A stretch of 32,000 nucleotides of DNA from Candidatus Saccharimonas aalborgensis (lineage in GTDB: Bacteria; Patescibacteriota; Saccharimonadia; Saccharimonadales; Saccharimonadaceae), in NCBI RefSeq assembly GCF_000392435.1, contig NC_021219.1, forward strand, positions 30,001 to 62,000. The letters run 5' to 3'. The position numbers and the translations under genes are program-made. Positions 1 to 12,687 of the stretch are shown in pieces. Numbering within the stretch: the stretch's first letter is position 1; the number at the start of each line of letters is the position of its first letter. The notes under the pieces are model-generated. The model did not search any database. It was not told where the DNA came from and was given only the letters and a program-made list of their open reading frames with translations.

Positions 1-1194
1 GCCGATAAACATGATGTAGGGAATAGCTTTTTTGACGGCAGTCTTGAGCTGCTTATCGATCTTTCGCCCGGTGAAATCAAGCTCAACATTGACTCCTTCA
101 CCGCGAAATTCCTTTGCCAATTTGGCGGCACCACGCAAGCTATCACCGACGACAATCATATAAATATCAGTTGTTGAGAAAAATGTTGGCAATAACCCAT
201 GTGTTTCGAGGAAAAGCTGCGTCATCGTCAGCCCAGGTGCAAACCCAACTGCACTGACCGGATCGGCGCCAAACAGGCTCACCAAACCATCATAGCGGCC
301 ACCACCGAAGAGCGCTCGGTTGTTTTCGGGGTGCGTGTCAAAAAATTCAAACACCGTGCCCGTGTAGTAGTCAAGCCCCCTCATGAGAGTGATGTCAAAT
401 ACGGCGTTTTTTACTCCTGCACGCTCGAGATGAGTGAAAAGCTCTTGAATTTCTTTGACAGCTTCGCTATCACGGATTGCTTCGGGGAGGTCGGCCATGG
501 TCTTGGCAGCGAGAAGCTGTGCAATCTTTTGTAGTCCCGTCGGTGCTGCCTCTTGCCCGAAGATGTCAATCGCTTGATCACGAAATGCATCCGACGCAAT
601 TTTACCTTTTCGATCAAACAGTTTTATCATCAACTGCGCCTGGATCGTGTCAAGCCCCAGGTAGTGTGCCATCATAAAGTTGATCACTTGCCGGTTATTG
701 ATACGGATGGCAAACATGTCATCAGCGGCGCCAAATGCTTTCATAAGGTCGTACCCCATCGAGATAATTTCTGCCTCAGGCAGTGCACCATCCATGCCGA
801 AAATATCGCAGTTGAGTTGCCAAAACTCGCGCTCACGACCCCTTTGAGGGCGTTCGTAGCGCATATACTGACCGATGTTGTACCATCGTGCCGGATAGGC
901 TATCTCCTGACGCCGCGCGGCGATCATACGACTGACACTCGGCGTCATTTCCGGTCGAATCGCTACTCGCCGTTCACCACGGTCAACAAACTGATAGGTT
1001 TGCTCATTGACAAGCTCTTGGCCACTCTTGGCAGCATATACTTCGATCGGCTCGAGTAATGGTGCGTCGTAGGCCTCATAGCCGTAACTTTTGACGATTC
1101 GCCGCCAGGTGCGAAAAATATAATTACGCACACGCATATCTTCGGGATACCAGTCCCGCGCGCCTTTGTACGATTCAGATGAGAGTGAGGTCAT
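1..1194 (-). CDS. hisS: Histidyl-tRNA synthetase; the C-terminal end runs off the window start
   Basis: The minus-strand frame is open from the ATG at 1194..1192 down to position 1. It is absent from the ORF track because no stop lies inside the window. My translation starts MTSLSSESYKGARDWYPEDMRVRNYIF. It contains FVDRGERRVAIRPEMTPSVSRM, RYERPQRGREREFWQLNCDIFG (class II motif 2-like) and ALFGGGRYDGLV (HisRS motif 3). Confidence 0.9.
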   Translation of the reverse strand, partial: MTSLSSESYKGARDWYPEDMRVRNYIFRTWRRIVKSYGYEAYDAPLLEPIEVYAAKSGQELVNEQTYQFVDRGERRVAIRPEMTPSVSRMIAARRQEIAYPARWYNIGQYMRYERPQRGREREFWQLNCDIFGMDGALPEAEIISMGYDLMKAFGAADDMFAIRINNRQVINFMMAHYLGLDTIQAQLMIKLFDRKGKIASDAFRDQAIDIFGQEAAPTGLQKIAQLLAAKTMADLPEAIRDSEAVKEIQELFTHLERAGVKNAVFDITLMRGLDYYTGTVFEFFDTHPENNRALFGGGRYDGLVSLFGADPVSAVGFAPGLTMTQLFLETHGLLPTFFSTTDIYMIVVGDSLRGAAKLAKEFRGEGVNVELDFTGRKIDKQLKTAVKKAIPYIMFIG

Positions 1195-1244
1195 AGTATC
1201 TGTTATTGTTTCATATTTCCCTGCATCACGCAAGGAAAAGCGGG

Positions 1245-1781
1245 TTAGTTCAACACGTGCTGTTGGAGCCACGCATACATGGCGATCCCTGCTGCCACGC
1301 CGACGTTGATACTACGGGTACTACCAAACTGCTCAATCGCGACAGTTTGCTCAGCGTAGTTGCGGAGTTTCTCAGAGATGCCCGGTCCCTCTGCGCCAAA
1401 TAGCAGCACACAGTCCTCGGGCAATAGTGCCTCGGATAGCAGAGACGCGTCTTCGCAGTTATCCACAGCAATCAGTCTCTTCTTGTACTGCCGCATCGCC
1501 GCCACGAAGCTATCGGCGTTGGCATAGTAATGCACATGCAGGTACTTGTCGGTCATCATGGCACCGCGCTTATTCCACTGGCGGCTGCCAATGATGTGCA
1601 CGTGCCGCACACCAAAGGCATTGGCACTGCGAACGATTGTTCCCATGTTGTAATCGCGTGACACATTATCGAGAGCGATTTCGAGCGAGATTGCGTCGGT
1701 ATCGAGATCAGCCACGATCGCATCGATCGACTTGCCTTTGTAAGCATCGATGAGGTTACGGCTATCGTGAGGGGCTTCCAT
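1245..1781 (-). CDS. SpoU/TrmH-family RNA 2'-O-methyltransferase
   Basis: 178-aa ORF. GTIVRSANAFGV, LLFGAEGPGIS and STRSINVGVAAGIAMY match the three SpoU methylase motifs. Confidence 0.8.
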   Translation of the reverse strand: MEAPHDSRNLIDAYKGKSIDAIVADLDTDAISLEIALDNVSRDYNMGTIVRSANAFGVRHVHIIGSRQWNKRGAMMTDKYLHVHYYANADSFVAAMRQYKKRLIAVDNCEDASLLSEALLPEDCVLLFGAEGPGISEKLRNYAEQTVAIEQFGSTRSINVGVAAGIAMYAWLQQHVLN

Positions 1782-1846
1782 ATTTTTTAGTATACAAAAA
1801 ACACGCCGATTTCGACGTGCTGACTATGAGCTAGAGAGGGTTTTCC

Positions 1847-1970
1847 CCGAGAGACAGGTCTCACCTACCATTCGCGCCGAAGCGCCAGGTCAGTGATCCA
1901 GTGTCTCTCGGGTATTCACCCCCTACGCGGTTGGAGTTCTGGCACGGCGCGGTGAAGCGCAGTGCCAGAA
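1847..1970 (-). terminator. Two strong hairpins in the 3' region of the GC-rich 104-aa gene
   Basis: Hairpin 1 pairs TTCTGGCAC (1937-1945) with GTGCCAGAA (1962-1970), plus an inner GCGC/GCGC extension. Hairpin 2 is a perfect 10-bp inverted repeat, CCGAGAGACA (1847-1856) with TGTCTCTCGG (1902-1911). Both lie just downstream of the minus-strand stop at 1981. No clear U-tract follows, so terminator function is inferred. Confidence 0.45.
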
Positions 1971-1980
1971 CCAGGACGGA

Positions 1981-2295
1981 CTACTTCTTGGACCGGTCGA
2001 CGGTCCGTCCGGCCCAAGCGAGGGCCTTCTTGGCCGCGTCGGCGCCGGCCTGGAGCTGCTCTCCCCGGGCCTTATCCGCGGGGGACAGGGCGTGGAAGGC
2101 GGCCCCGACGGCGTCGTCGAAGTTGTCGGCGCCGAGTTCCGCCACCCGGTCCAGGACCCGGTGGGCGAAGACGGTGGCGAAGCCACCCACCTGGCGGACG
2201 GCCCCGCACTTGTGGGCGAGGTCGATGACCTTCGCGGCGCGGTCGGCGACGGCGGCCTGGCTGGCGGCGAGGATGTCGAATCCCATTGTTTCCAT
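1981..2295 (-). CDS. Hypothetical Ala-rich, probably all-helical protein of 104 aa (GC-rich cassette 1)
   Basis: The ORF has GC-rich third codon positions. A weak Shine-Dalgarno (GAAAGGA) precedes the ATG at 2295. It has its own upstream promoter and downstream hairpins. I recognise no family motif. Confidence 0.6.
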   Translation of the reverse strand: METMGFDILAASQAAVADRAAKVIDLAHKCGAVRQVGGFATVFAHRVLDRVAELGADNFDDAVGAAFHALSPADKARGEQLQAGADAAKKALAWAGRTVDRSKK

Positions 2296-2384
2296 CCTTT
2301 CTGGCCTTTTTCAAGGGCCAGGTTGTAGGGGGATGAAGGTCTAGTCGTGAGTCGGTATTACTTCGATTCACGAACTCAGTACGC

Positions 2385-2413
2385 ATTATAGCATAAGCCT
2401 TAATTTTTGTCAA
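2385..2413 (-). promoter_or_regulatory. Sigma70-type promoter for the 104-aa gene
   Basis: On the minus strand, TTGACA (2413..2408), a 17-nt spacer, then TATAAT (2390..2385). It sits in an AT-rich patch about 90 nt upstream of the start codon. Confidence 0.6.
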
Positions 2414-2551
2414 TATGCTTGAGCGTTTGCCGTATGATATAGTGGGATGAGATGCAGATGTGACGGCTGCGTGAAACGCAAATGATTGTAGACGCGCTAG
2501 GCGTTGTATAATGTACAGGTACCGTCTCATTACATATCACATTTTATGTAT

Positions 2552-2638
2552 GCGGATATGGCGGAATTGGTAGACGCGCTAGCTTCAGGTGCTAGTGTAC
2601 GTAAGTACGTGGAGGTTCAAGTCCTCTTATCCGCACCA
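2552..2638 (+). tRNA. tRNA-Leu (anticodon CAG), type II with long variable arm, CCA encoded
   Basis: The acceptor stem is GCGGATA/TATCCGC. The D region is GGCGGAATTGGTAGACGC. The anticodon arm CTAGC-TTCAGGT-GCTAG gives anticodon CAG. The variable arm is GTAC-GTAA-GTAC and the T arm is GGAGG-TTCAAGT-CCTCT, followed by ACCA. Confidence 0.92.
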
Positions 2639-2675
2639 ACGATACAGCCCGGCCTCGTGTCGGGTTTTATCGTTG
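2639..2675 (+). terminator. Intrinsic terminator after tRNA-Leu(CAG)
   Basis: The inner stem is CCCGGC/GTCGGG with loop CTCGT, followed by TTTT. The outer arms are AACGATA/TATCGTT. Confidence 0.6.
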
Positions 2676-2700
2676 GTATGCATTAGCACTTGGAGCTTCA

Positions 2701-2812
2701 CGTCGTGGAGGTGAGAACTGCCAGTGGTAGTTCGGAAACGAATCTTCCGACGAAAGCTATGCTTTCTACGCGCGAGTTCGGGGGTCGCGGAACGTGACCA
2801 AGTCCTCTTATC
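2701..2812 (+). repeat. tRNA-Leu-linked conserved structured element, copy A (candidate ncRNA or att remnant)
   Basis: Copy A shares GTGGNGGTGAGAACTGCC...GTTCG..AA.GAAACG with copy B (7947-8066) and aligns with copy C (7620-7740). Hairpin H1 is at 2715-2733 and H2 (GAAAGC-TAT-GCTTTC) at 2752-2766. It ends in CAAGTCCTCTTATC (2799-2812), identical to T-loop/acceptor positions 2618-2631 of the upstream tRNA. Confidence 0.55.
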
Positions 2813-2839
2813 ATTGGTGGAGTATTAGAGTAAACTGCG

Positions 2840-3826
2840 TCAAGTTGCTTTCTCTTTGGCTGCGCGCATTGTCGCCCCGGCCAATCCATACACGTTTGTC
2901 GCACTATGGTCAGCATACTTTCCGGTGAGCCGTATCGGAACATATCGCGTAGTCAGGTTGCGGTCGTGCTCGATGGAAGTGCGTATATTGAGATTTGCTT
3001 CATCTGGAGAGACAGTTCCGGTACGCGCCCACACGTGAGCAACGCCGGCTCCTTTGTCGAGAGCATGGCGAATATCATACTCAAGTCGCATTCGGCGCAT
3101 CAAACCCACTATTGCCAAGTTATCTAATCGTGCAGCCCCTATTCCATATAGCATCATCCCGCGTGCAGTGAGTGATTCCAGATGTGCGGCTACTAGAGGT
3201 GATGCGGCATCGTCCTGACGGTTAAGCGAGATATTTGCGGCAAGTTGCTTGCCATCGGTCATAAAAGCCTTGATAAGTTCGTAATGGCTCCGATCTACTA
3301 CGGTAGGAGACTCAAATACCACCATGCTATGAAGAGCCGTATCGGGGTGAGACGCATATGGACCAACGATGGCAGCGCCCTGTGATGGCCCAAAAGTCAT
3401 CACCTCTCCAGCTTCGCCTATCTCTATACGTGCCCGATCAATAAGTGGCGAGGCATCGCCGTGCCTAATACGTGTACGCTCACTGTTAGATAGATTCACA
3501 TTGTCTTCCAAACACGTTGTATTTGGTTGATATATGAGTTTTGATGATGGATTCACCATCGCCCTTATTACGCGAGCCCTTGCCACGGCAGGAATAGATA
3601 TACCATTTGCGTATTCGGCAGGTACCCAGAGAACGCTGTCGTCCCAATCTTTAGGCGTATCGACAACGAGCCTAAAGGCCCTCCCCGCTAGCTCTCTACG
3701 AACAGTATGCGAGCTAACCCACTCTGCATGGTCCGAAAGAGCCTGCTCGACAATAGAGGCTATGAGCTCATCATCCTCGCCAGATACATATGCTTTAGCT
3801 TCAGGATACAGGTCGGTCCAGATCAT
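2840..3826 (-). CDS. Hypothetical protein, 328 aa
   Basis: Long ORF with backbone-like composition. No motif recognised. Confidence 0.6.
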   Translation of the reverse strand: MIWTDLYPEAKAYVSGEDDELIASIVEQALSDHAEWVSSHTVRRELAGRAFRLVVDTPKDWDDSVLWVPAEYANGISIPAVARARVIRAMVNPSSKLIYQPNTTCLEDNVNLSNSERTRIRHGDASPLIDRARIEIGEAGEVMTFGPSQGAAIVGPYASHPDTALHSMVVFESPTVVDRSHYELIKAFMTDGKQLAANISLNRQDDAASPLVAAHLESLTARGMMLYGIGAARLDNLAIVGLMRRMRLEYDIRHALDKGAGVAHVWARTGTVSPDEANLNIRTSIEHDRNLTTRYVPIRLTGKYADHSATNVYGLAGATMRAAKEKAT

Positions 3827-3922
3827 TATGGATCAAGAATACCCTATGCTTTGACATATATCAATATACATTTGATAAGATGTTACCAAGAGAATACATA
3901 ACCATGAGCTATATGGTAGACT

Positions 3923-4507
3923 GTGAGTATGGCAATGAGTTCAAAAGGATTTACGATTCTCGAGTTAATTGTCGTAATTGTCGTTATCGGAACTCTCACC
4001 ACAATCACGGTTGTCGCATTCAATGGCATCCAAGATCGTGCCTATATGTCTCAGATATACGCCAACGTGAGTAGCACCGCAAAGTTAATGAACAGCTATC
4101 ATATATTCAACAGAACCTACCCAATTGTTGCAAACACAAACTGTATCGGAAAAGTGAGCGATTACCCGGCGACGGGAGGGTTTGCGGCGGGGTCTTGCGG
4201 TATTGATACAAGCAATAACTCCTCATGGGGACAAGCAAATGACTCGTTTATGACGATGCTCGGCACAATGGGGACCGTACCAACCGGTACAACACCCCGG
4301 ATTGCCACCCATTACGGGATAAAGTATCGCGGCATTTATTTCCAGATAAATGACTACCCCAAAGGATCGGCGTGGCCCGACTCGGTATTCTTTGAATTTG
4401 CCGTACCGGGCAAGCTAGACTGCCAGGGAAAACCTTACATTTCCCGTTATGACTCGTCGGGTAATTCGACCTATTGTTCGTACTACTTCAACGCAGAGGG
4501 GAACTAG
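3923..4507 (+). CDS. Type IV pilin-like protein (prepilin N-terminal methylation motif)
   Basis: The N-terminus ..SSKG/FTILELIVVIVVIGTLTTITVVAF is a classical class III signal with a hydrophobic helix. The true start may be the ATG at 3929 or 3935 rather than the GTG at 3923. Confidence 0.8.
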   Translation: MSMAMSSKGFTILELIVVIVVIGTLTTITVVAFNGIQDRAYMSQIYANVSSTAKLMNSYHIFNRTYPIVANTNCIGKVSDYPATGGFAAGSCGIDTSNNSSWGQANDSFMTMLGTMGTVPTGTTPRIATHYGIKYRGIYFQINDYPKGSAWPDSVFFEFAVPGKLDCQGKPYISRYDSSGNSTYCSYYFNAEGN

Positions 4508-4525
4508 TCCCACACCGCTTAAGAT

Positions 4526-5062
4526 CTACTGTTCACCCGGAACCCAAGATTTCCCGCCGCGACGTAGTGGAGGAAGTGAAAGATGATCGAAGGTGTCTTC
4601 GTACACGGTTACTCCCGCCTCTCGCATAAGTTCGTCACCAAATCTGATACTTTCACCCCAGTGATCATCTCCATACACGACAGGAAACCGCACGACGTGT
4701 CGTATCCCAGACTCTATAATCATACGATCACACTCTGTACATCCTACCCACGGACTAACAAGGCAGGCGCGCCAAGTAGCTTGGCCCAATCGCGCTGCTT
4801 GGGCGATCGCTCGGCGCTCGGCGTGTTCATAAAAACGCAACTTTGTCTCGCGATCTGTGCGACGCGGCTTAGTGTCCTTGACGCCACGCGGCGTTCCGTT
4901 GAATCCGACACCGATTATGTCGCCAGTTTGGCCGAGAATAACTGCACCAGTCTGCGATGAAGGATCTTTGCTCTGAAGTGCAACCTTAAATGCAGCGATC
5001 ATTGCGATATCGATAACATCTGGCGATTGGCCCGTTTGTGCAAATTCGGCACGTGTCAACAT
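4526..5062 (-). CDS. dCMP/CMP deaminase family protein (ComEB-like)
   Basis: HAERRAI (the H-A-E zinc/catalytic motif) and GCTECDRMI (C-x-x-C) occur at the expected spacing in a 178-aa protein. Confidence 0.8.
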   Translation of the reverse strand: MLTRAEFAQTGQSPDVIDIAMIAAFKVALQSKDPSSQTGAVILGQTGDIIGVGFNGTPRGVKDTKPRRTDRETKLRFYEHAERRAIAQAARLGQATWRACLVSPWVGCTECDRMIIESGIRHVVRFPVVYGDDHWGESIRFGDELMREAGVTVYEDTFDHLSLPPLRRGGKSWVPGEQ

Positions 5063-5136
5063 AGTGTCTCTGTTTCCTCTTTAAGCTACGCTGAGTATAC
5101 ACCGATTTACGGTAATCTCAAGCATAAGAGATGTAG

Positions 5137-6759
5137 TTATATCCCAAATCGACCAAGTTGCCCGACGTCATGATGATCGCGCAATAACTCGGCGAGATGT
5201 TTGACATCGTTGGCAGCTTTTACCCCGGGGTTGAGGATACCATGCGGATCAAAAACGCTCTTGATATCCTGATAAAGTTTCACCTGTGTTTCATCAAGCT
5301 GGGCATAGACGAACTTTCCCTTTAGTCTCCCCTCGCCGCCTTCACTAATCATCGTCCCGCCACATGATGTGACGAGTGAGGTGAGTTCATCGAGCAATTT
5401 AAAGATAAGTTGTTTGTCGCTGACCTTGTGGAGTGACAGAGAGGGATACACGGTATAGGTACCAGTATAGGCATGTCCTGCAAGCGGGAGCGCGGTGTGG
5501 AGCTTGTCAGCAAGCTCGCTCAAATGCCCGCAAAATTCTTCAAACCTCTCGCCAGGAATATGAAAGCCACCGTAAAGTCCTGGCGAGGCGGTCTCGACTG
5601 TGTCGGGGAATGATGTGTAATACGCAACATCCAGCGCTGCCATGAGGTCGCCTGCAACATCACCATTGGCGGTAGTCACTGCGACGTTTGCCTTTGCTAC
5701 CAACTTTACCACTTTTTTGAGCTGTTTTTCTCGATGACGTTCGTTGAAGTCGTCAAATCCTAGCAGTATTACCGATTCGCCAGGTGTCTTTGCGACTGCT
5801 TCTGCATAAAACTGAAAAACATGTCCCCTATCGGCAGCGGCGTCGAAGAGAGCTGCATCGAAATACTCGATAAATGCTGGCTGTAGTTTGCACAGCGCAT
5901 CGAGTGCGTCCCTGGCGTCATTGGCTGACTGGTAGACCAGAGCTGCTACGCCAAAATGCAGGCTACGGAACTCTGCGCGCATGATCATCTCAGTGATGAT
6001 GCCTAAGGTACCCTGAGAACCAACAAAGAGTGGCGTCAAGTCAAATGAGCCGTCCTTTTGTTTGACATCGGCTATCGCATTGTACCCCGTTGCATCATCG
6101 GCACGAAGTGAGTCAAGCAACTCACCATTTTCCTCTATCAGGCCATCAATTCCACGGTAAATGTCGCCTTCCATGCCCTGGAGACCTTTGCGTCGATTGA
6201 GCTCGCGCTTACTAATCCGGCCTGTCTGAATCACGTCACCGTTGGCTAGCACCACTTCGAGCTGATCAATAGCTTTTTCGATGGTCCCATACTTGCCAGA
6301 CAGGGGCCCCGCTACACCACTGGCAACAGCTCCGCCGATCGTCCCTATGCCTATCGAACCAAAGAGCGGCATGAGTGCCGTCCCATGCAGAGAAAGTGCC
6401 TGCGATACACCATGGACGGTAGCACCAGGCTGAAGTCGCAGCAGTTTTTGCTTGGCATCATACTCAAATAGTTGATTCATATGCGCCATCGTGACGAGCG
6501 AGATACCTTTGCCAATAGCCGCTCCAGTGGGGTCTGTACCGGCACCACGCACCGTAATCGGCATGACATGGCCTTTTTCGGCAAGCTGCCATGCAAAGCG
6601 CGTTACCTTGCGCACATCGTTGGTTGTCCTCGGATAGATGACGAGCTCAGGTTTTATGGAAAGCACTCCACCGTCTGTACTCACCGCTTGGCAAACATCA
6701 CTCCGTGCTGATACCTCACCGCTGATATGCCCGCGTAGGTAAGTCGCAACTTTACTCAT
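5137..6759 (-). CDS. FAD-linked oxidase (GlcD/D-lactate dehydrogenase-like)
   Basis: 540 aa. The N-terminal PCMH-type FAD-binding region (PELVIYPRTTNDVRKV..., RGAGTDPTGAAIG, GATVHGV) is followed by a C-terminal oxidase domain ending FDPHGILNPG. Confidence 0.75.
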   Translation of the reverse strand: MSKVATYLRGHISGEVSARSDVCQAVSTDGGVLSIKPELVIYPRTTNDVRKVTRFAWQLAEKGHVMPITVRGAGTDPTGAAIGKGISLVTMAHMNQLFEYDAKQKLLRLQPGATVHGVSQALSLHGTALMPLFGSIGIGTIGGAVASGVAGPLSGKYGTIEKAIDQLEVVLANGDVIQTGRISKRELNRRKGLQGMEGDIYRGIDGLIEENGELLDSLRADDATGYNAIADVKQKDGSFDLTPLFVGSQGTLGIITEMIMRAEFRSLHFGVAALVYQSANDARDALDALCKLQPAFIEYFDAALFDAAADRGHVFQFYAEAVAKTPGESVILLGFDDFNERHREKQLKKVVKLVAKANVAVTTANGDVAGDLMAALDVAYYTSFPDTVETASPGLYGGFHIPGERFEEFCGHLSELADKLHTALPLAGHAYTGTYTVYPSLSLHKVSDKQLIFKLLDELTSLVTSCGGTMISEGGEGRLKGKFVYAQLDETQVKLYQDIKSVFDPHGILNPGVKAANDVKHLAELLRDHHDVGQLGRFGI

Positions 6760-6866: not shown

Positions 6867-7577
6867 ATGTCGCACCAACCAGAGGCAGTCCGTGTCCCTT
6901 ATCTATTGCGTCCCCTCACCATCGATACGATGGATGAGCAACGCCCCTATTACGTGCGCCCAGGATCCATATCGATCGCGCCAGATAGTGGCGCACTCAC
7001 TCTCCAGGGAGGCGAAAAACTCAAACCCGCAAGCCTGCGTCCACCCGTCATGCTGGGTTATGTCGGTATCATGCTTGTCACTCTATTTGAGGGAGATGAC
7101 TGCACCCCGGTACGCGGGTATGTGGCAGATTTGAGGCGTATCGCAAATGGCAATCTCTTCGATACGGGCACCACTGCCGACATGCCAGGTGATCAGGAGG
7201 AGGCAAATTACTGGGAGGAAACAAGAAAGGCCGAACGTCCTATCGTTGCCTGTATTTCACGTGCTGCCATCAAGGGTGCTGAACTCATTTTCGATGGTGA
7301 CCCCCGCTTTGAGCCCGCAACACGAGAGCTGGCAGCCCTCGCCGACAAGCTTGAGGAGGAGCTCAAAAAAGAACAACTAAAAAAAGCAAAAAAGATGCGT
7401 ATCCCCAAATCACTAAAGGATACACCGTCAGCTGGCGGCTCAGACGATGACCCAGGAGACAAAGAGCCATTGAGCCCTCCGAGTGATAATCCGGATGATT
7501 CGGGCAAGGGCGGGACGAAGCTTAAAGTCCGCAAACATGGTCGCAGCGTGGAGCTAGAGACACTAGAGGATGATTGA
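6867..7577 (+). CDS. Hypothetical protein with an acidic/Lys-rich low-complexity tail
   Basis: 236-aa ORF. The start is uncertain, with an alternative ATG at 6930 (MDEQRPYY). No strong Shine-Dalgarno and no recognised domain. Confidence 0.5.
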   Translation: MSHQPEAVRVPYLLRPLTIDTMDEQRPYYVRPGSISIAPDSGALTLQGGEKLKPASLRPPVMLGYVGIMLVTLFEGDDCTPVRGYVADLRRIANGNLFDTGTTADMPGDQEEANYWEETRKAERPIVACISRAAIKGAELIFDGDPRFEPATRELAALADKLEEELKKEQLKKAKKMRIPKSLKDTPSAGGSDDDPGDKEPLSPPSDNPDDSGKGGTKLKVRKHGRSVELETLEDD

Positions 7578-7795: not shown

Positions 7796-7880
7796 GCGGA
7801 TGTGGTGAAATTGGTATACACGTATGCCTTAGGAGCATATGCCTCACGGCGTGCTGGTTCAAGTCCAGTCATCCGCACCA
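7796..7880 (+). tRNA. tRNA-Leu (anticodon TAG), CCA encoded
   Basis: The acceptor stem is GCGGATG/CATCCGC. The anticodon arm TATGC-CTTAGGA-GCATA gives anticodon TAG. A long variable region is followed by the T arm GCTGG-TTCAAGT-CCAGT, then ACCA. Confidence 0.9.
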
Positions 7881-8108: not shown

Positions 8109-8137
8109 TTGTTATTTTGTCAATTTTATGATAGAAT
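8109..8137 (+). promoter_or_regulatory. Sigma70-like promoter for the 475-aa gene
   Basis: TTGTTA (8109-8114), a 17-nt spacer, then TAGAAT (8132-8137), in a very AT-rich patch immediately before the GC-rich island. Confidence 0.5.
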
Positions 8138-8231: not shown

Positions 8232-9659
8232 ATGACAGCAAGGACAAGCGTGTTGCCGGCGCCCACATGGCACGGCACGCCTGCTAACCTGCAACACCAG
8301 TGGTTTGAGTTCCTGCGCGGGCACGCCCGGCAGCAGGCTCAGACTCGCCCAGCTCAGCTGAGGCGCGAACTGAGCTATGCCCAGTCCGACAACAGAGACG
8401 ATCGTGCTCAACTCCGTAGCTACGCGAACGAGAGTCGCAATCATCAGGAGAAACTCACTCGTCTGCGTGCGTCTGTTCGGACGTACAACGACGAGGACTA
8501 CTTGAACGCACTCGAAGCGCTCTTTGCCCTGCCCGAAGTCATCGCGACCCGGGTAGACAGGCATGGGGCGCTCGTCGTCCTGATTCGTCCGATCCGCAGC
8601 GACAGCCTTGATCTCGGTGACTTCGAGATCTCGTTTGATGATCTCGTTGCTGACTACAACTCATACATTGTGAGGTCTCGACTGACACAGGATGATGTCC
8701 GGTACCGCAACCTAAGTATGTGTGATAGTTTCGGCAATAACACCCACCTCTTCCGCGTTGATTCGCTCACTCGACAGCAATTCTGTGACTTCTACGCTAA
8801 CCTCGACCTTGCCGGACTTGTCCGTGCAATCTCGGAACAGATCAATGAAGTCACGGCTAGCTCCCGAGCGCTTCTCCAGCAAACAGTGCCCGGTGCCGAA
8901 CCGCTCTGGGATGGGTTCGTGGAGAATCCGCTCAAAGCGCTCAAGCAGCTGCAGAAGCGAGCCCTCGACCGGCATCAGCTCGCTCGTCAGATTCGCGAAC
9001 AGGAAAGACTTGTCGCCGACTACGACAGGGCCATGCGCGATCTCCGCGAACGCATTCGACAGAATGAGGCCGACATCCGCCGGATGGAAGCCGAATTGGT
9101 CGCCCTCGAGGCGACGGCGCGACGGCGTGGCGAGATCATCGACCTCGCTGACGCACGTCGGACGCTGCGATTCATCACCCACATGCCCGGGTTCCTCGGC
9201 ATGCGGTTCGACGAGGATGGCACCGCCGTCATTCATATCCGAACCAGCTGGGTGTATCGGGACCGGCGCTATGACCTCGGTGATTTCGAGTTGTGGCTTC
9301 GGCCCAACCGAGGTAACCACAAGGGATACGGTGTCGTGCCGATCCATGCAACACGCCTCCCCAGTGGGGGCAGAAGCACGACTTACTTCAATCGGTACGC
9401 CAGCCATCGTCCTGGTCTCAACGAGAATGACTGGTTCTGCTTCGGAGGGCGCAGCGGCGAGCTCGGCAACATGCTGAATGACGGTGATTTTGGACACTTC
9501 GTCAATATTGCAGTCAACTGCATGAACTCCGTGAACAATGCAGATAAACCAGGTCATGCCCACCACCTCCCTGTCATTCCAATGGAGGAAGTGTGGCGGC
9601 ACCAGCCGCGTACTCGTGCGCGGCGGTGGTTGGCAAGGGTGGCAATCGCCGCCAGCTGA
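8232..9659 (+). CDS. Two-module coiled-coil protein, 475 aa; the C-terminal module is a candidate E2/UBC-like domain (inference)
   Basis: The Shine-Dalgarno AAGGAGG (8215-8221) precedes the ATG at 8232. There is an internal duplication. Module 1 reads coiled coil..ALVVLIRPIRSDSLDLGDFEISF. Module 2 reads coiled coil..AVIHIRTSWVYRDRRYDLGDFELWL. Module 2 continues VVPIHATRLP...YASHRPGLNENDWFCFGG, which resembles the E2 layout of beta-meander, HPN-like loop and catalytic Cys (Cys403, codon 9438-9440). Confidence 0.6.
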   Translation: MTARTSVLPAPTWHGTPANLQHQWFEFLRGHARQQAQTRPAQLRRELSYAQSDNRDDRAQLRSYANESRNHQEKLTRLRASVRTYNDEDYLNALEALFALPEVIATRVDRHGALVVLIRPIRSDSLDLGDFEISFDDLVADYNSYIVRSRLTQDDVRYRNLSMCDSFGNNTHLFRVDSLTRQQFCDFYANLDLAGLVRAISEQINEVTASSRALLQQTVPGAEPLWDGFVENPLKALKQLQKRALDRHQLARQIREQERLVADYDRAMRDLRERIRQNEADIRRMEAELVALEATARRRGEIIDLADARRTLRFITHMPGFLGMRFDEDGTAVIHIRTSWVYRDRRYDLGDFELWLRPNRGNHKGYGVVPIHATRLPSGGRSTTYFNRYASHRPGLNENDWFCFGGRSGELGNMLNDGDFGHFVNIAVNCMNSVNNADKPGHAHHLPVIPMEEVWRHQPRTRARRWLARVAIAAS

Positions 9660-9687
9660 ACCCACTTTGGATCAGAAAACTACACCT

Positions 9688-9723
9688 CGGCGAGTCCGAG
9701 AGCACCCGCTCTCGGACTCGCCG
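9688..9723 (+). terminator. Perfect 15-bp hairpin after the 475-aa gene
   Basis: CGGCGAGTCCGAGAG, loop CACCCG, then CTCTCGGACTCGCCG. No U-tract follows on the + strand, so terminator function is inferred from position only. Confidence 0.5.
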
Positions 9724-9778
9724 AAAGGAGATTTATAGATAGGTAGCGATAAGTTGTGAATAATTTTTGGAAAAACTA

Positions 9779-9807
9779 TTGACGATTTATCAATAAAAGT
9801 TTATAAT
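9779..9807 (+). promoter_or_regulatory. Sigma70-type promoter for the Ubl gene
   Basis: TTGACG (9779-9784), a 17-nt spacer, then TATAAT (9802-9807), in an AT-rich patch. Confidence 0.6.
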
Positions 9808-9882: not shown

Positions 9883-10128
9883 ATGTCCAACACCGCCACC
9901 ACCGCTTCTGTGAAGCTGCCCGGAAAGGCCGGCCGCGTCGACGTCACCGTGCCTGAGGGCTCGACCGTCGCCGACGTCCTGTTGGCCGCCGCGGACGCCT
10001 TGGGCGTCCTCGGCAACTTCGACCCCGAGTCGGTCGTCGCCGTCGTCAACAACGAGGAGGCCGACCTCCAGGACGCCGTCCCCGACGGTGCTCAGGTCGA
10101 CGGCACGACCAACGTCGCCAACGGCTGA
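9883..10128 (+). CDS. Ubiquitin-like beta-grasp protein (ThiS/MoaD-like), 81 aa, C-terminus ...NVANG
   Basis: The Shine-Dalgarno AAGGGAGG (9868-9875) precedes the ATG at 9883. The track ORF begins earlier at a GTG (9820). The sequence VDVTVPEGSTVADVLLAAADALG...VAVVNNEEADLQDAVPDGAQVDGTTNVANG-stop follows the ThiS/MoaD pattern (..vNg....d..L.dGD.v.i.p.v.GG). Gly is the last residue. Confidence 0.7.
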   Translation: MSNTATTASVKLPGKAGRVDVTVPEGSTVADVLLAAADALGVLGNFDPESVVAVVNNEEADLQDAVPDGAQVDGTTNVANG

Positions 10129-10466
10129 CTCGACGACTTCCTCGCCATTCGGACCATCCCCGTCGTAGGGGACCATCTAGGACCGAGTGGACCAACGAGA
10201 AGCGAAGTCCCGTCGGAATCGTGTGATGTTAGAGGGCCGTCCATCGTAGTAGTGTCTGTAGCGTGCGGAACCCGTCAAACGGTGCCGTTTCGTCTCCACT
10301 CAGCGGTGTTCGGAACTATATCCGTTTCAAGATCAAAGGGCTGCGCCTCTCTGGTATGTCGGCGATTCTGCTATTAGTAGAATCCTGTCGGCACGACGAC
10401 GAGGGCACCTCAGTAGTGAGCGACGGATCTCACATGTTCCCCCCGGGGGACAAATGGAGCGCATCA

Positions 10467-10526
10467 CCCGACACCCGTCGGGTTTGGGGCGCGGACACTT
10501 CGGTGACCGCGCCCCCTTCGCTTTTT
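10467..10526 (+). terminator. Tandem hairpin terminators closing the Ubl transcription unit
   Basis: The first hairpin is CCCGAC-ACCC-GTCGGG (10467-10482), followed by TTT. The second pairs GGGGCGCGG (10486-10494) with CCGCGCCCC (10507-10515), followed by CTTCGCTTTTT. Confidence 0.65.
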
Positions 10527-10534
10527 GAGAATAC

Positions 10535-10563
10535 TTGATTTTTTTGTTATTTTGTAGTATAAT
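10535..10563 (+). promoter_or_regulatory. Sigma70-type promoter for the JAB-E1 operon
   Basis: TTGATT (10535-10540), a 17-nt spacer, then TATAAT (10558-10563). Confidence 0.55.
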
Positions 10564-10645
10564 AGAAGTGGCATTTTCTAGGTCTATTCCTGGGGTGCTC
10601 GACCCTTTACACCCTAGGCCCACACGAGACAAGGAGTCTTCTACT

Positions 10646-11278
10646 ATGCGCATCCTCTCTGCTCCGTTGACCGCGAAGGACGCACCTAAATTGGTCGTGC
10701 CGACACTCTTCATTTCCTCGAGTGACTACGACCTGATGCTCATCTACGCCCAGACGGCCTCACCACAAGAGGTGAACGGCTATGGGCTGATCGACCAGGG
10801 CGCCCGTGACCAGTTCATATTGTGCCCCGGTGGCCTCTTCATCACCGACCAGGTGGTGACGCAGGTCAGCGCCAAGCCGACTGCGGTCGGCAACGCCTAC
10901 GCCGGCAACCGTGCCGACGAGGCCGGCATGACGCTGGGGCTGCAGTGGCACAGCCACGGCAGGGGCGGAGCGTATCACTCGCCGACCGACATGAACACCG
11001 CCCACAACTACGGGAGGGTCGGCACCATCGACTGGATGATCTGGGTCGTCATCAATGACCGTGGCGACGTAGTCGCACGGCTCGAGCAGTACGCACCAAT
11101 CCGCATCGGCGTGCCGATGACCGTCATCGTCGTCCCCGACAACCACCAGCAGCTGCTGGAGCAGGTCACGGACGACATCGCGCGGCACGTCCGCGTCGAG
11201 ACGCCTCCGATACCATCCAAGGCGCTGGCGGCAACGCCAGCGTTCGTCAGCCCCGACAAGAAGGAGAACACCAAGTGA
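10646..11278 (+). CDS. JAB/MPN (JAMM) metallopeptidase, 210 aa
   Basis: The Shine-Dalgarno AAGGAG (10631-10636) precedes the ATG at 10646. The track ORF start at 10535 lies inside the promoter. The JAMM signature is complete: an upstream Glu in PQEVNGYG, then WHSHGRGGAYHSPTD (H-x-H-x7-S-x-x-D). Confidence 0.8.
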   Translation: MRILSAPLTAKDAPKLVVPTLFISSSDYDLMLIYAQTASPQEVNGYGLIDQGARDQFILCPGGLFITDQVVTQVSAKPTAVGNAYAGNRADEAGMTLGLQWHSHGRGGAYHSPTDMNTAHNYGRVGTIDWMIWVVINDRGDVVARLEQYAPIRIGVPMTVIVVPDNHQQLLEQVTDDIARHVRVETPPIPSKALAATPAFVSPDKKENTK

Positions 11279-11958
11279 GCAACGAGGACTTCGCTCCGAA
11301 CTGGTCCGACCAAGGCGGGATCTTCGATCCCGACAGCTTCGTCGGGACCATTACCATCATCGGGGCGGGGGGTATCGGCGCAAGCCTCATCCCCACGCTG
11401 GTCACCGTCGGTTTCCGGCGGTTCATCATCTACGACCCCGACCGGGTCGAGGACCGCAACATCGCCAGCCAACTGCTCTACAAGCCGCGTGACCTCTACC
11501 GCCCCAAGGTGGAGGTTTGTCAGGAGTACATCCAGACATACGGCGACTGTCAGGTGGTGGTCGAGGTACACCAGCGGCTGTTCACTGCCGAGGACCGCAT
11601 CACGACCCCAGTCGTCATCAGCGCCGTCGACAACCAAGACGCGCGTCGGATGATCTGGCAAGCCGTCCAGGACTCTCCCGACGTGCGACTCCTCATCGAC
11701 GGGCGTATCGGCAGCGAGGCGTTCACTTGCCTCGCCGTCGACATGCTCGACGACAGCGACTGGTATGACACCAAGTTCCTCGGCGACAACATCGCCCAGC
11801 TGCCCTGCGCCAGCCGTGCCATCGCCTACCCGGCGGTGGCGCTCGGTGCCGTCATCACACGGCACCTGGTGCACTGGCACGCTGGGGAGGAACTGCCACG
11901 GCGCGTCTCGCAGGACATGCGAGACCTCGTGCAACTCGTGATCCAGGCCCCGAAGTAA
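11275..11958 (+). CDS. Minimal ThiF/MoeB/E1-like adenylating enzyme, 227 aa
   Basis: The GTG start overlaps the JAB stop (GTGA at 11275-11278), with AAGGAG 8 nt upstream. Motifs are the Rossmann loop IIGAGGIGAS, YDPDRVEDRNIASQ (E1 nucleotide-binding Asp/Asn/Gln motif), RPKVEV, SAVDNQDARR and LPCASRAIAYPAVALG (Cys-containing loop). Confidence 0.8.
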   Translation: MSNEDFAPNWSDQGGIFDPDSFVGTITIIGAGGIGASLIPTLVTVGFRRFIIYDPDRVEDRNIASQLLYKPRDLYRPKVEVCQEYIQTYGDCQVVVEVHQRLFTAEDRITTPVVISAVDNQDARRMIWQAVQDSPDVRLLIDGRIGSEAFTCLAVDMLDDSDWYDTKFLGDNIAQLPCASRAIAYPAVALGAVITRHLVHWHAGEELPRRVSQDMRDLVQLVIQAPK

Positions 11959-12008: not shown

Positions 12009-12073
12009 GGGATAACCGACCATAGATACAACAAGCTATGCTGATGAGCTGTAAACAGCGAATCGGTTATCCC
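12009..12073. other. 11-bp perfect inverted repeat at the right edge of the GC-rich island, between convergent genes
   Basis: GGGATAACCGA (12009-12019) pairs with TCGGTTATCCC (12063-12073), separated by 43 nt. It may be a bidirectional terminator or a boundary structure. Confidence 0.4.
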
Positions 12074-12687
12074 TACGCTCTGTGACCAGTCGTTTTCCGA
12101 TAGTTATACAGACTGAGCGCGAGTGAGCCAAGCAACATACCTGTTGCGGCGTGTTTTGCCCAGCGCGCTTCTTTGCTCTCCGGATACGCATCTCCAACTC
12201 TCAAGCTCACCGAACGTACTGCTGTCGAGAGTTTTCCCCACCACTGTGCTGCACCATCGCCACAGTGTTCTGTTTGGATTGTACGAAGATACGTCGACGT
12301 AACGTCCCGGCCGAGTCTCAGCAAAAACGTCGCAACGTCTAATTCACCGCGAAGCACGCGCAGCAATTCTTGCACAAAAAAATCGAGTTTATCAACAAAT
12401 GGATCAATTACTTTGCCAAAGGCATTTTCGGCTCCCGCACTCCGGATAATTTCGCCGTCTATCTTGTCACCAAGGTCAAGCAGGCTCTCGAGCGCAACAA
12501 ACTGAGCGCGAGATAATTTGCCCCGAGAATGGGCAGCCTCGACAATCATACGCGCAGCGAACCGTCCAAGCGTTACGATATTTGCCTCAATAATCGCGCG
12601 CTGCTGCTCTGGTGAATAATCAGCCCAGGCACCGCGGGTATCCTGGAAACCCTTTGCCAGCGGGCGTAGAACTTCACGAGCTATCAT
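12073..12687 (-). CDS. Hypothetical protein, 204 aa, with a C-terminal hydrophobic segment
   Basis: ORF with backbone composition. No recognised motif. Confidence 0.55.
   Translation of the reverse strand: MIAREVLRPLAKGFQDTRGAWADYSPEQQRAIIEANIVTLGRFAARMIVEAAHSRGKLSRAQFVALESLLDLGDKIDGEIIRSAGAENAFGKVIDPFVDKLDFFVQELLRVLRGELDVATFLLRLGRDVTSTYLRTIQTEHCGDGAAQWWGKLSTAVRSVSLRVGDAYPESKEARWAKHAATGMLLGSLALSLYNYRKTTGHRA

Follow-up and report, generated by a model that had tools for sequence, protein, structure and literature searches.

A duplicated protein with a conserved cysteine in a four-gene ubiquitin-like cassette of Saccharibacteria: a candidate E2-like component

The conjugation of ubiquitin-like proteins (Ubls) in bacteria has been shown experimentally only recently, for type II CBASS, Bil and Bub, each time with unexpected chemistry. 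Bil, Bub and CBASS, together with the 6a-6e classes, have been described in the literature (PMC1779556, PMC11601596). In the present study, a stretch of 32,000 nucleotides from Candidatus Saccharimonas aalborgensis (Saccharibacteria/TM7, genome of ~1 Mb; contig NC_021219.1, positions 30,001 to 62,000), hereafter the window, was analyzed with a focus on a 475-residue protein that is 100% identical to L336_0034, a "hypothetical protein" of this organism, and on three genes downstream of it that code for a Ubl, a JAB/JAMM metallopeptidase and a minimal activating enzyme (E1). The protein consists of two copies of a module made of a long helix and an alpha/beta domain, of which the second (module 2) carries a cysteine, Cys403, that is kept in nearly all relatives, and the first (module 1) has lost it. 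The reading that we favor, at roughly even chances, is that this protein accepts and transfers the Ubl and thus is the component comparable to a conjugating enzyme (E2) of a self-contained four-gene cassette, with a fold that is probably very diverged and UBC/RWD-like.

Among the described systems, the Bil antiphage systems (BilABCD, the old class 6d) have the same four-gene logic of a Ubl, an E2-like protein, a JAB peptidase and an E1, without an E3, and their E2 has been proposed to select the targets itself (PMC11601596). The E1 of Bil, however, is built from an inactive and an active adenylation domain in tandem and a Cys domain (IAD-AAD-CYS), whereas here it is one domain of 227 residues; no matches to BilA, BilB or BilC were found, the Cys-domain family is unrelated in sequence, and most of the genes around the cassette are housekeeping ones. 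In PADLOC, the minimal E1 had only a partial BilD match (2.8e-7), and the remaining cassette proteins had none. Bub (6E/DUF6527) and the type II CBASS proteins Cap2/Cap3 likewise bring together E1, E2-like and peptidase functions in bacterial operons, and they illustrate how far the E2s of bacteria can diverge and that canonical motifs can be lacking (PMC11601596). Bub works with Ser/Tyr oxyesters, fused proteins and the DUF6527 protease, and CBASS with an E2-E1 fusion acting on the CD-NTase, whereas no component of either was found in the cassette (no DUF6527, no fusions) and a Cys is invariant in both its E1 and its module 2.

The closest relatives of the Ubl, E1 and JAMM peptidase belong to the archaeal SAMP-UbaA-HvJAMM1 system, to which the locus is alike, as to Thermus TtuB/TtuC, in its Ubl (best match Pyrococcus SAMP2, 4e-6), its single-domain E1 and the presumed reversal by a JAMM peptidase. 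These systems, however, have Gly-Gly Ubls and no E2-like partner, whereas here a protein with an invariant Cys is always encoded with them and the Ubl terminus is Asn-Gly. With this terminus, and with no MoaE, ThiG, CysM or TtuA among the neighbors, the hallmarks of the ThiS/MoaD sulfur carriers are also lacking. E2-UEV pairs such as Ubc13-Mms2/Uev1a resemble the double-module protein in combining a Cys-bearing domain with a homologous Cys-less copy, in the order of a helix, a four-strand meander and then a Cys at a helix start, and in working with an E1 and a Ubl, as the protein presumably does here. In contrast to these pairs, both copies here belong to a single fused chain, a helix of ~60 residues precedes each, there is neither an HPN (His-Pro-Asn) motif nor a significant UBC score, and the partners are a 227-residue single-domain E1 and an Asn-Gly Ubl. 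A long helix followed by a UBC-like domain, sometimes in tandem, is also found in coiled-coil proteins with RWD domains (Spc24/25, Mad1, Csm1, the tandem RWD of Knl1, the DRWD of FANCL), which dimerize via their helices; the top Foldseek matches of module 2 include RWD, FANCL and KMN chains. Those proteins are non-catalytic and eukaryotic, whereas in the present protein an invariant Cys marks one copy, which is linked to genes for an E1, a Ubl and a JAB peptidase.

Internal duplication and the conserved cysteine

The 475-residue protein is encoded by an open reading frame (ORF) at 8232..9659 (+) with an AAGGAGG ribosome-binding site upstream of its start. An N-terminal motif, LPxPTWHGxP (8253..8282 (+)), with P11 and W13 unchanged throughout 49 full-length homologs, is also N-terminal in the separate single-module genes of another locus (L017, see below). 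It is followed by a first long helix (residues 20-81, 8289..8474 (+)) rich in Arg, Glu and Gln, by module 1 (residues 87-215, 8490..8876 (+)), a poorly conserved alpha/beta domain, by a second long helix (residues 233-298, 8928..9125 (+)) and by module 2 (residues 305-455, 9144..9596 (+)), and the chain ends in an Arg-rich tail, PRxRxRR (9597..9656 (+)), that is kept only in the soluble double-module subfamily. Both helices were taken from the DSSP assignment of a full-length AlphaFold model (9-sequence alignment, predicted local distance difference test score (pLDDT) 78.9), in which each of them leads into a domain of a helix, a beta-meander and further helices. The original prediction had a long heptad-like stretch before each half, which agrees with the two modeled helices; the heptad pattern is strong in helix 2 (hydrophobic residues 74% at a/d positions vs. 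28% elsewhere) and weaker in helix 1 (47% vs. 24%). Weak coiled-coil family matches at residues 235-298 were all that Pfam, NCBIfam, PADLOC and PHROGs returned.

That the protein is a tandem duplication of a coiled coil plus an alpha/beta module, as had been proposed, was confirmed in two ways. With BLASTP, residues 55-133 of the N-terminal half align with residues 269-353 of the C-terminal half at 29% identity (E = 1e-6, for the pairwise search space), and the sequence DLGDFE does occur twice, at residues 127-132 (8610-8627) and 348-353 (9273-9290). As this alignment takes in the Arg/Glu-rich helix, a hidden Markov model (HMM) was made from the module-2 domain alone (residues 296-462 only, helices excluded, 49 homologs); it matched module 1 of the 475-residue protein with an independent E-value of 2.4e-6 and module 1 of homologs with values as good as 5.5e-19 (P0017) and 9.5e-19 (P0025), so the duplication is not an effect of coiled-coil composition. 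Module 1 is an inactive paralog of module 2: the column of Cys403 has a Cys in 2/52 module-1 copies vs. 51/52 module-2 copies, and the mean frequency of the top residue is 0.30 in module 1 vs. 0.48 in module 2. Its earlier description as a UEV-like inactive copy holds in the limited sense that it is homologous and Cys-less, which does not imply membership in the UEV or RWD families themselves; the Cys context then quoted for it is that of C164, which is unconserved and not aligned with Cys403.

The size of the family depended on the type of search. A word-indexed search retrieved 9 relatives only among 5.8 billion clusters, and a profile query of a word-indexed protein database two proteins only, while 351 proteins at E ≤ 1e-3 came from a full HMMER profile search that covered 1.84 billion representatives. 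About 55 of these are full-length double-module proteins, and most others have module 2 only, at the C-terminus of proteins of ~250 or ~450 residues. The majority of relatives are membrane-anchored single-module forms, and a few loci encode the two modules as separate genes.

Cys403 (codon TGC at 9438-9440) lies in the motif WFCFGGR (9432..9452 (+)) and is the sole invariant column in an alignment of 55 diverse module-2 sequences; in agreement with the expectation that it would be conserved across homologs, it is kept in 146/147 family representatives. The other residues kept among the 147 representatives belong mostly to this motif (F402 and G405 97%, F404 92%, R407 91%) and to RYDLGDFE at the b2-b3 hairpin of module 2 (9267..9290 (+); G350 99%, D348 and D351 97%, Y347 93%), to which G320 (97%), G418 (87%), N435 (86%) and R375 (80%) can be added. 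No conserved His was found in module 2, either in the 55-sequence alignment or among the 147 representatives, so Cys403 is more in keeping with E2-type chemistry than with a Cys-His protease. The "HPN-like" H-R-P..N motif of the original prediction did not hold up: its His sits in an insertion of variable length and is not conserved, and in the sequence SHRPG it is H392 and not H390.

Partner genes and cassette loci

The Ubl gene codes for 81 residues from an ATG at 9883 (9883..10128 (+)), and its product is a beta-grasp protein of the SAMP/MoaD/ThiS type that ends in NVANG. After SAMP2, the family profile matched SAMP1 and MoaD, and the match runs to the C-terminus. The terminal Asn-Gly (codons at 10120-10125 in the window) is shared by all 13 Ubls of the alignment and by another 13 Ubl ORFs, which lie downstream of the E1 gene in 12 loci from GTDB (Genome Taxonomy Database); it held without exception in the window and in 17+ loci. 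Four relatives of the Ubl have one or two residues after Asn-Gly (NGA twice, NGAG and NGL) and would need trimming. The JAB/JAMM metallopeptidase gene (10646..11278 (+), likely start ATG 10646) matches Pfam Prok-JAB above the family cut-off (1.5e-6) and has an intact E...HxHx7SxxD motif, whose HSHx7SxxD part spans 10949-10990 and whose Glu lies upstream at 10769-10771. The minimal E1 (11275..11958 (+)) has 227 residues and a single ThiF-type adenylation domain with GxGGxG (GAGGIG at 11362-11379), the conserved Asp residues and an invariant Leu-Pro-Cys178 (11800-11808), and is without CxxC zinc motifs. Its best solved relative is UBA3 (1.6e-11), then UBA7, SAE2 and UBA1, with ThiF behind at 1.9e-6, and NCBIfam gave a weak UbaA match. 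By their sequences, the Ubl, E1 and JAB proteins look like a set for protein conjugation.

The link with genes for a Ubl and an E1, both named in the original prediction, proved to be a tight one and includes the JAB peptidase: in ~20 diverged loci, the Cys-module gene is always accompanied by genes for a Ubl and a minimal E1 of the 227-residue type, and one informative locus (L016) alone lacks the JAMM peptidase gene. In five diverged double-module loci, the order is 475-residue protein-Ubl-JAB-E1 wherever the contig allows. A degenerate DNA pattern for YDxGD...FCFGxR, run on 185,579 GTDB species genomes, hit 24 places, 14 of them genuine: 12 in metagenome-assembled genomes (MAGs) of Saccharibacteria, one in a Binatia genome and one in an unclassified bacterium. 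The commonest order in these 14 loci is a gene for two to three transmembrane helices, a coiled coil and one Cys module, followed by JAB, E1 and Ubl. In L007 a single-module gene is followed by JAB; L017 has two tandem single-module genes, with the Cys in both; and L006 has a Cys-module gene followed by a separate gene for a Cys-less paralog. The arrangements in L006 and L017 suggest that a dimer first became a heterodimer and then a fusion. One Saccharibacteria MAG (CAZTXC01; L017 at 5186-6739, L029 at 16-5423) has three cassettes of unlike architecture (tandem single-module genes, an E1 and Ubl pair, and a cassette of the transmembrane type), which is remarkable in such small genomes. The four-gene Ubl cassette has so far been found mainly in Saccharibacteria, and a literature search found no description of the cassette or of Saccharibacteria Ubl systems.

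Fold of module 2 and the readings of the protein

An AlphaFold model of residues 297-462 (55-sequence alignment) reached a pLDDT of 91.4 and a predicted template modeling score (pTM) of 0.86. It consists of a helix, four strands, a 27-residue loop, the Cys at the N-terminus of a helix, and two more helices (a1-b1-b2-b3-b4-loop-Cys-helix-helix-helix), with Cys403 two residues ahead of the helix that follows strand 4. The UBC fold has the same order of elements, and its catalytic Cys likewise begins a short helix. In a Foldseek search of this model against the PDB, 18-19 of the 20 top matches were from the UBC superfamily (TSG101 UEV, UbcH7, UBE2L6, RWDD3, the Cap2 E2 domain, FANCL and a KMN RWD chain); as these are interrelated, they count as one weak observation, not twenty. 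The full-length model matched coiled-coil proteins only, module 2 gave nothing significant or nameable against viral structures, and against PDB sequences neither the protein nor the domain profile, searched with phmmer and hmmsearch, gave more than chance matches. Module 2 is probably a very diverged UBC/RWD-like fold. Of the UBC-like layout proposed earlier, the model reproduces the order of elements and the placement of the Cys, the HPN motif is lacking, and no significant match in fold or sequence to an E2 was found.

The gene linkage, the invariant Cys in an F-C-F-G-x-R turn, the conserved Asp, Arg and Asn without His, the Cys-less paralog and the UBC-like order together argue for the role of an E2-like carrier, for which we infer the following thioester cycle, including its direction and its target. 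The Ubl with its Asn-Gly end, which in relatives with one or two extra residues the JAMM peptidase would trim first, would be adenylated at its terminal Gly by the minimal E1, whose invariant Cys178 may hold it as a thioester. It would then be handed to Cys403 in the turn at the helix N-terminus, beside the nearly invariant hairpin with D348, G350 and D351 and beside R375 and N435, and be moved from there onto a target amine, and the JAMM peptidase would undo the modification. With module 1 and the two long helices, the protein would be a pseudo-heterodimer within one chain, similar to an E2-UEV pair, and in this arrangement module 1 probably provides the binding of the Ubl or the target.

Several results weigh against an E2-like protein. 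No significant structural match to module 2 was found in the PDB (best E 0.23, TM-score 0.33-0.38), and of the solved bacterial E2s the top 50 Foldseek matches hold only Cap2, at rank 16, with BilB and BubB absent. At the sequence level, the Pfam models UQ_con, Prok-E2_A-E, RWD and UEV gave nothing at E ≤ 10 for the 55 isolated module-2 domains, Pfam gave no domain match for 83 distant family members, and the 475-residue protein had zero domain matches in the four collections named above. The hhalign comparison with seven eukaryotic E2/UEV sequences had a probability of 4%; that it was in register over a1-b3, with RYDLGDFEL opposite SPYQGGVFFL, speaks for an E2. The HPN motif is absent upstream of Cys403, as it is in many bacterial E2s too (PMC1779556, PMC11601596). 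One homolog of 460 residues (P0012) is the sole member with Asn in place of the Cys and His in place of the Arg (WFNFGGH), and reflects either a natural loss of activity or an error in the assembly. To our knowledge, the archaeal SAMP systems run without any E2, so that precedent does not require one here. The E2 interpretation of the original prediction is supported in part: Cys403, the Cys-less copy and the logic of the operon are upheld, the HPN motif is not, and the fold agrees in its order of elements, with no significant match.

Some of these points recur in the view that the protein is not catalytic at all but a dedicated substrate, scaffold or effector, with the E1 alone conjugating the Ubl as in archaeal sampylation or with Thermus TtuB, and with Cys403 serving for attachment, as a redox switch or in a structural capacity. 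SAMP and UbaA, the nearest relatives of the Ubl and E1, need no E2, module 2 has no significant E2 similarity, and the long helices and the membrane anchors that most relatives have are features often seen in scaffolds or effectors. We nevertheless regard such a role as unlikely, as no Lys is conserved, as the invariant Cys in its F-C-F-G-x-R turn with Asp, Arg and Asn has the pattern of an active site, and as a Cys-less paralogous copy beside the Cys copy mirrors pairs of enzyme and pseudo-enzyme. The same cysteine could also serve a deconjugating thiol hydrolase, an analog of the thioester-forming ligases of HECT/RBR style or a transglutaminase-like enzyme, with a convergent or superficial likeness to E2s; it is invariant and accompanied by conserved Asp, Arg and Asn, and the fold of module 2 has no significant match to anything. 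This is improbable in our view, given that there is no conserved His for a Cys-His dyad, that a JAMM peptidase is already there for deconjugation and that UBC-superfamily folds are all that stands at the top of the structure search.

In a further reading, the cassette is a sulfur relay: the E1 would adenylate the Ubl, and a persulfide on Cys403, after the fashion of a rhodanese-type C-x-G-x-R loop, would turn it into a Ubl thiocarboxylate for thiolation, with the JAB peptidase processing the Ubl as Mec+ does CysO. The Ubl and E1 are indeed of the ThiS/MoaD-ThiF/MoeB lineage, and the placement of the Cys at a helix N-terminus, with Gly and Arg after it, is reminiscent, judging from the model and the motif, of loops that bind persulfides or anions. 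However, no MoaE, ThiG, CysM, TtuA or cysteine desulfurase is conserved beside the cassette (in the window and 14 other loci), the Ubl ends in Asn-Gly and not in the Gly-Gly of sulfur carriers, and the E1 is nearer to conjugating E1s than to ThiF. Several cassettes per small genome and a fast-evolving, membrane-anchored component are also unlike housekeeping cofactor chemistry, and we consider the relay improbable.

Turning back to the E2-like carrier, its more far-reaching form is that module 2 is a new class of Ubl carrier, either an extremely diverged UBC-like domain or an independent invention, that has an inactive paralog and long helices built in or, in most relatives, a membrane anchor; with the minimal Cys-bearing E1, the JAMM peptidase and the Asn-Gly Ubl it would make up a complete and so far unrecognized system, characteristic of the ultra-small, host-attached Saccharibacteria, that conjugates proteins or membrane/lipid targets, maybe at the envelope or in a conflict with phage or host; this we put forward tentatively, as a doubtful proposal. 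If it is a true E2, the UBC superfamily reaches the candidate phyla radiation and the protein is a natural model of a fused E2-UEV pair; should its fold prove not to be UBC, it would represent a novel way of transferring a Ubl. The key component is an unannotated family outside the coverage of Pfam, NCBIfam, PADLOC and PHROGs, and the cassette is an unusual mix of the simplest possible E1, an Asn-Gly Ubl and a carrier candidate with a Cys as its only invariant residue. Four dedicated genes are a large investment in reduced genomes of ~1 Mb, some with up to three cassettes, and the membrane-anchored form of the majority makes envelope or lipid targets possible.

Genomic context, transcription signals and neighboring genes

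A tRNA-Leu(tag) gene (7796..7880 (+), found with ARAGORN and Rfam) lies directly upstream of the cassette and has the same place in the syntenic locus L001 (7276-7360). The GC content of the cassette is 0.59-0.70 vs. 0.52 in the window, 7-18 GC points above its surroundings, and this position beside a tRNA gene together with the high GC content suggests an old acquisition at the tRNA site, without an att-like repeat. A recent island insertion at tRNA-Leu was rejected on account of the missing att-like repeat and the position shared with L001, where the flanking genes are 65-78% identical to those of the window. Identity within the cassette decreases from 62% in the E1 to 48% in the Ubl, 47% in the JAB and 33% in the 475-residue protein, and module 1 is the fastest-evolving part of the cassette. 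Long antisense ORFs cover the cassette genes in the window (8712-9665 (-) and 11008-11934 (-)) and in L002 (8724-9524 (-)), where the public gene call picked the antisense ORF in place of the E1 on the + strand; they are artefacts of the high GC content of the cassette.

Upstream of the 475-residue protein gene, a consensus scan indicated a sigma-70-like promoter candidate (TTGTTA-17-TAGAAT with a TG extension, 8109..8137 (+)). Just past its stop lies a perfect 19-bp GC-rich hairpin that is terminator-like (9685..9726, no strand assigned), and a near-consensus promoter-like site, TTGACG-17-TATAAT (9779..9807 (+)), is found ahead of the Ubl gene. Between Ubl and JAB, the block 10456-10612 was aligned for the window, L001, L004 and L002 and is conserved at the DNA level in these four diverged loci, with 74% identity over 168 nt between the window and L001 vs. 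~47% for the flanking proteins. It has a GC hairpin with a T-run, followed by a promoter-like site, TTGATT-17-TATAAT (10535..10563 (+)), and the JAB gene likely starts at ATG 10646, not at TTG 10535. An RNA gene or small ORF was rejected as the explanation for this block, in which a terminator hairpin precedes a -35/-10 promoter and Rfam has no match. With a terminator and then a promoter between Ubl and JAB, JAB-E1 are apparently transcribed apart from the Ubl gene, and with the hairpin at 9685-9726 and the promoter before the Ubl gene, the cassette may form three transcription units.

No cassette match was obtained in the phage, plasmid and IMG/VR collections, and carriage by phages or plasmids was rejected, at BLAST or pattern sensitivity. 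A defence-island context was likewise unsupported, with flanks that differ between the loci and are mostly housekeeping, and with sporadic defence-like matches. The fast-evolving carrier, the multiple copies and the patchy distribution hint at conflict, possibly an antiviral one as with Bil, whereas the flanks give no such hint.

Three further genes of the window were noted. The ORF at 6867-7577 (+) codes for 236 residues with an acidic, low-complexity C-terminal half and no family match; it is not conserved at this place in L001, and was rejected as a cassette member and is probably unrelated. A CDP-alcohol phosphatidyltransferase gene (12073-12687 (-)), which is missing from this place in L001, abuts the E1 gene, and is mentioned here since most relatives of the Cys domain are membrane-anchored. 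Further upstream, at 3923-4507 (+), lies the gene for a type IV pilin-like protein whose N-terminus carries a methylation motif (N_methyl of Pfam at E 3e-4, slightly short of the cut-off), and L001 has a similar gene.

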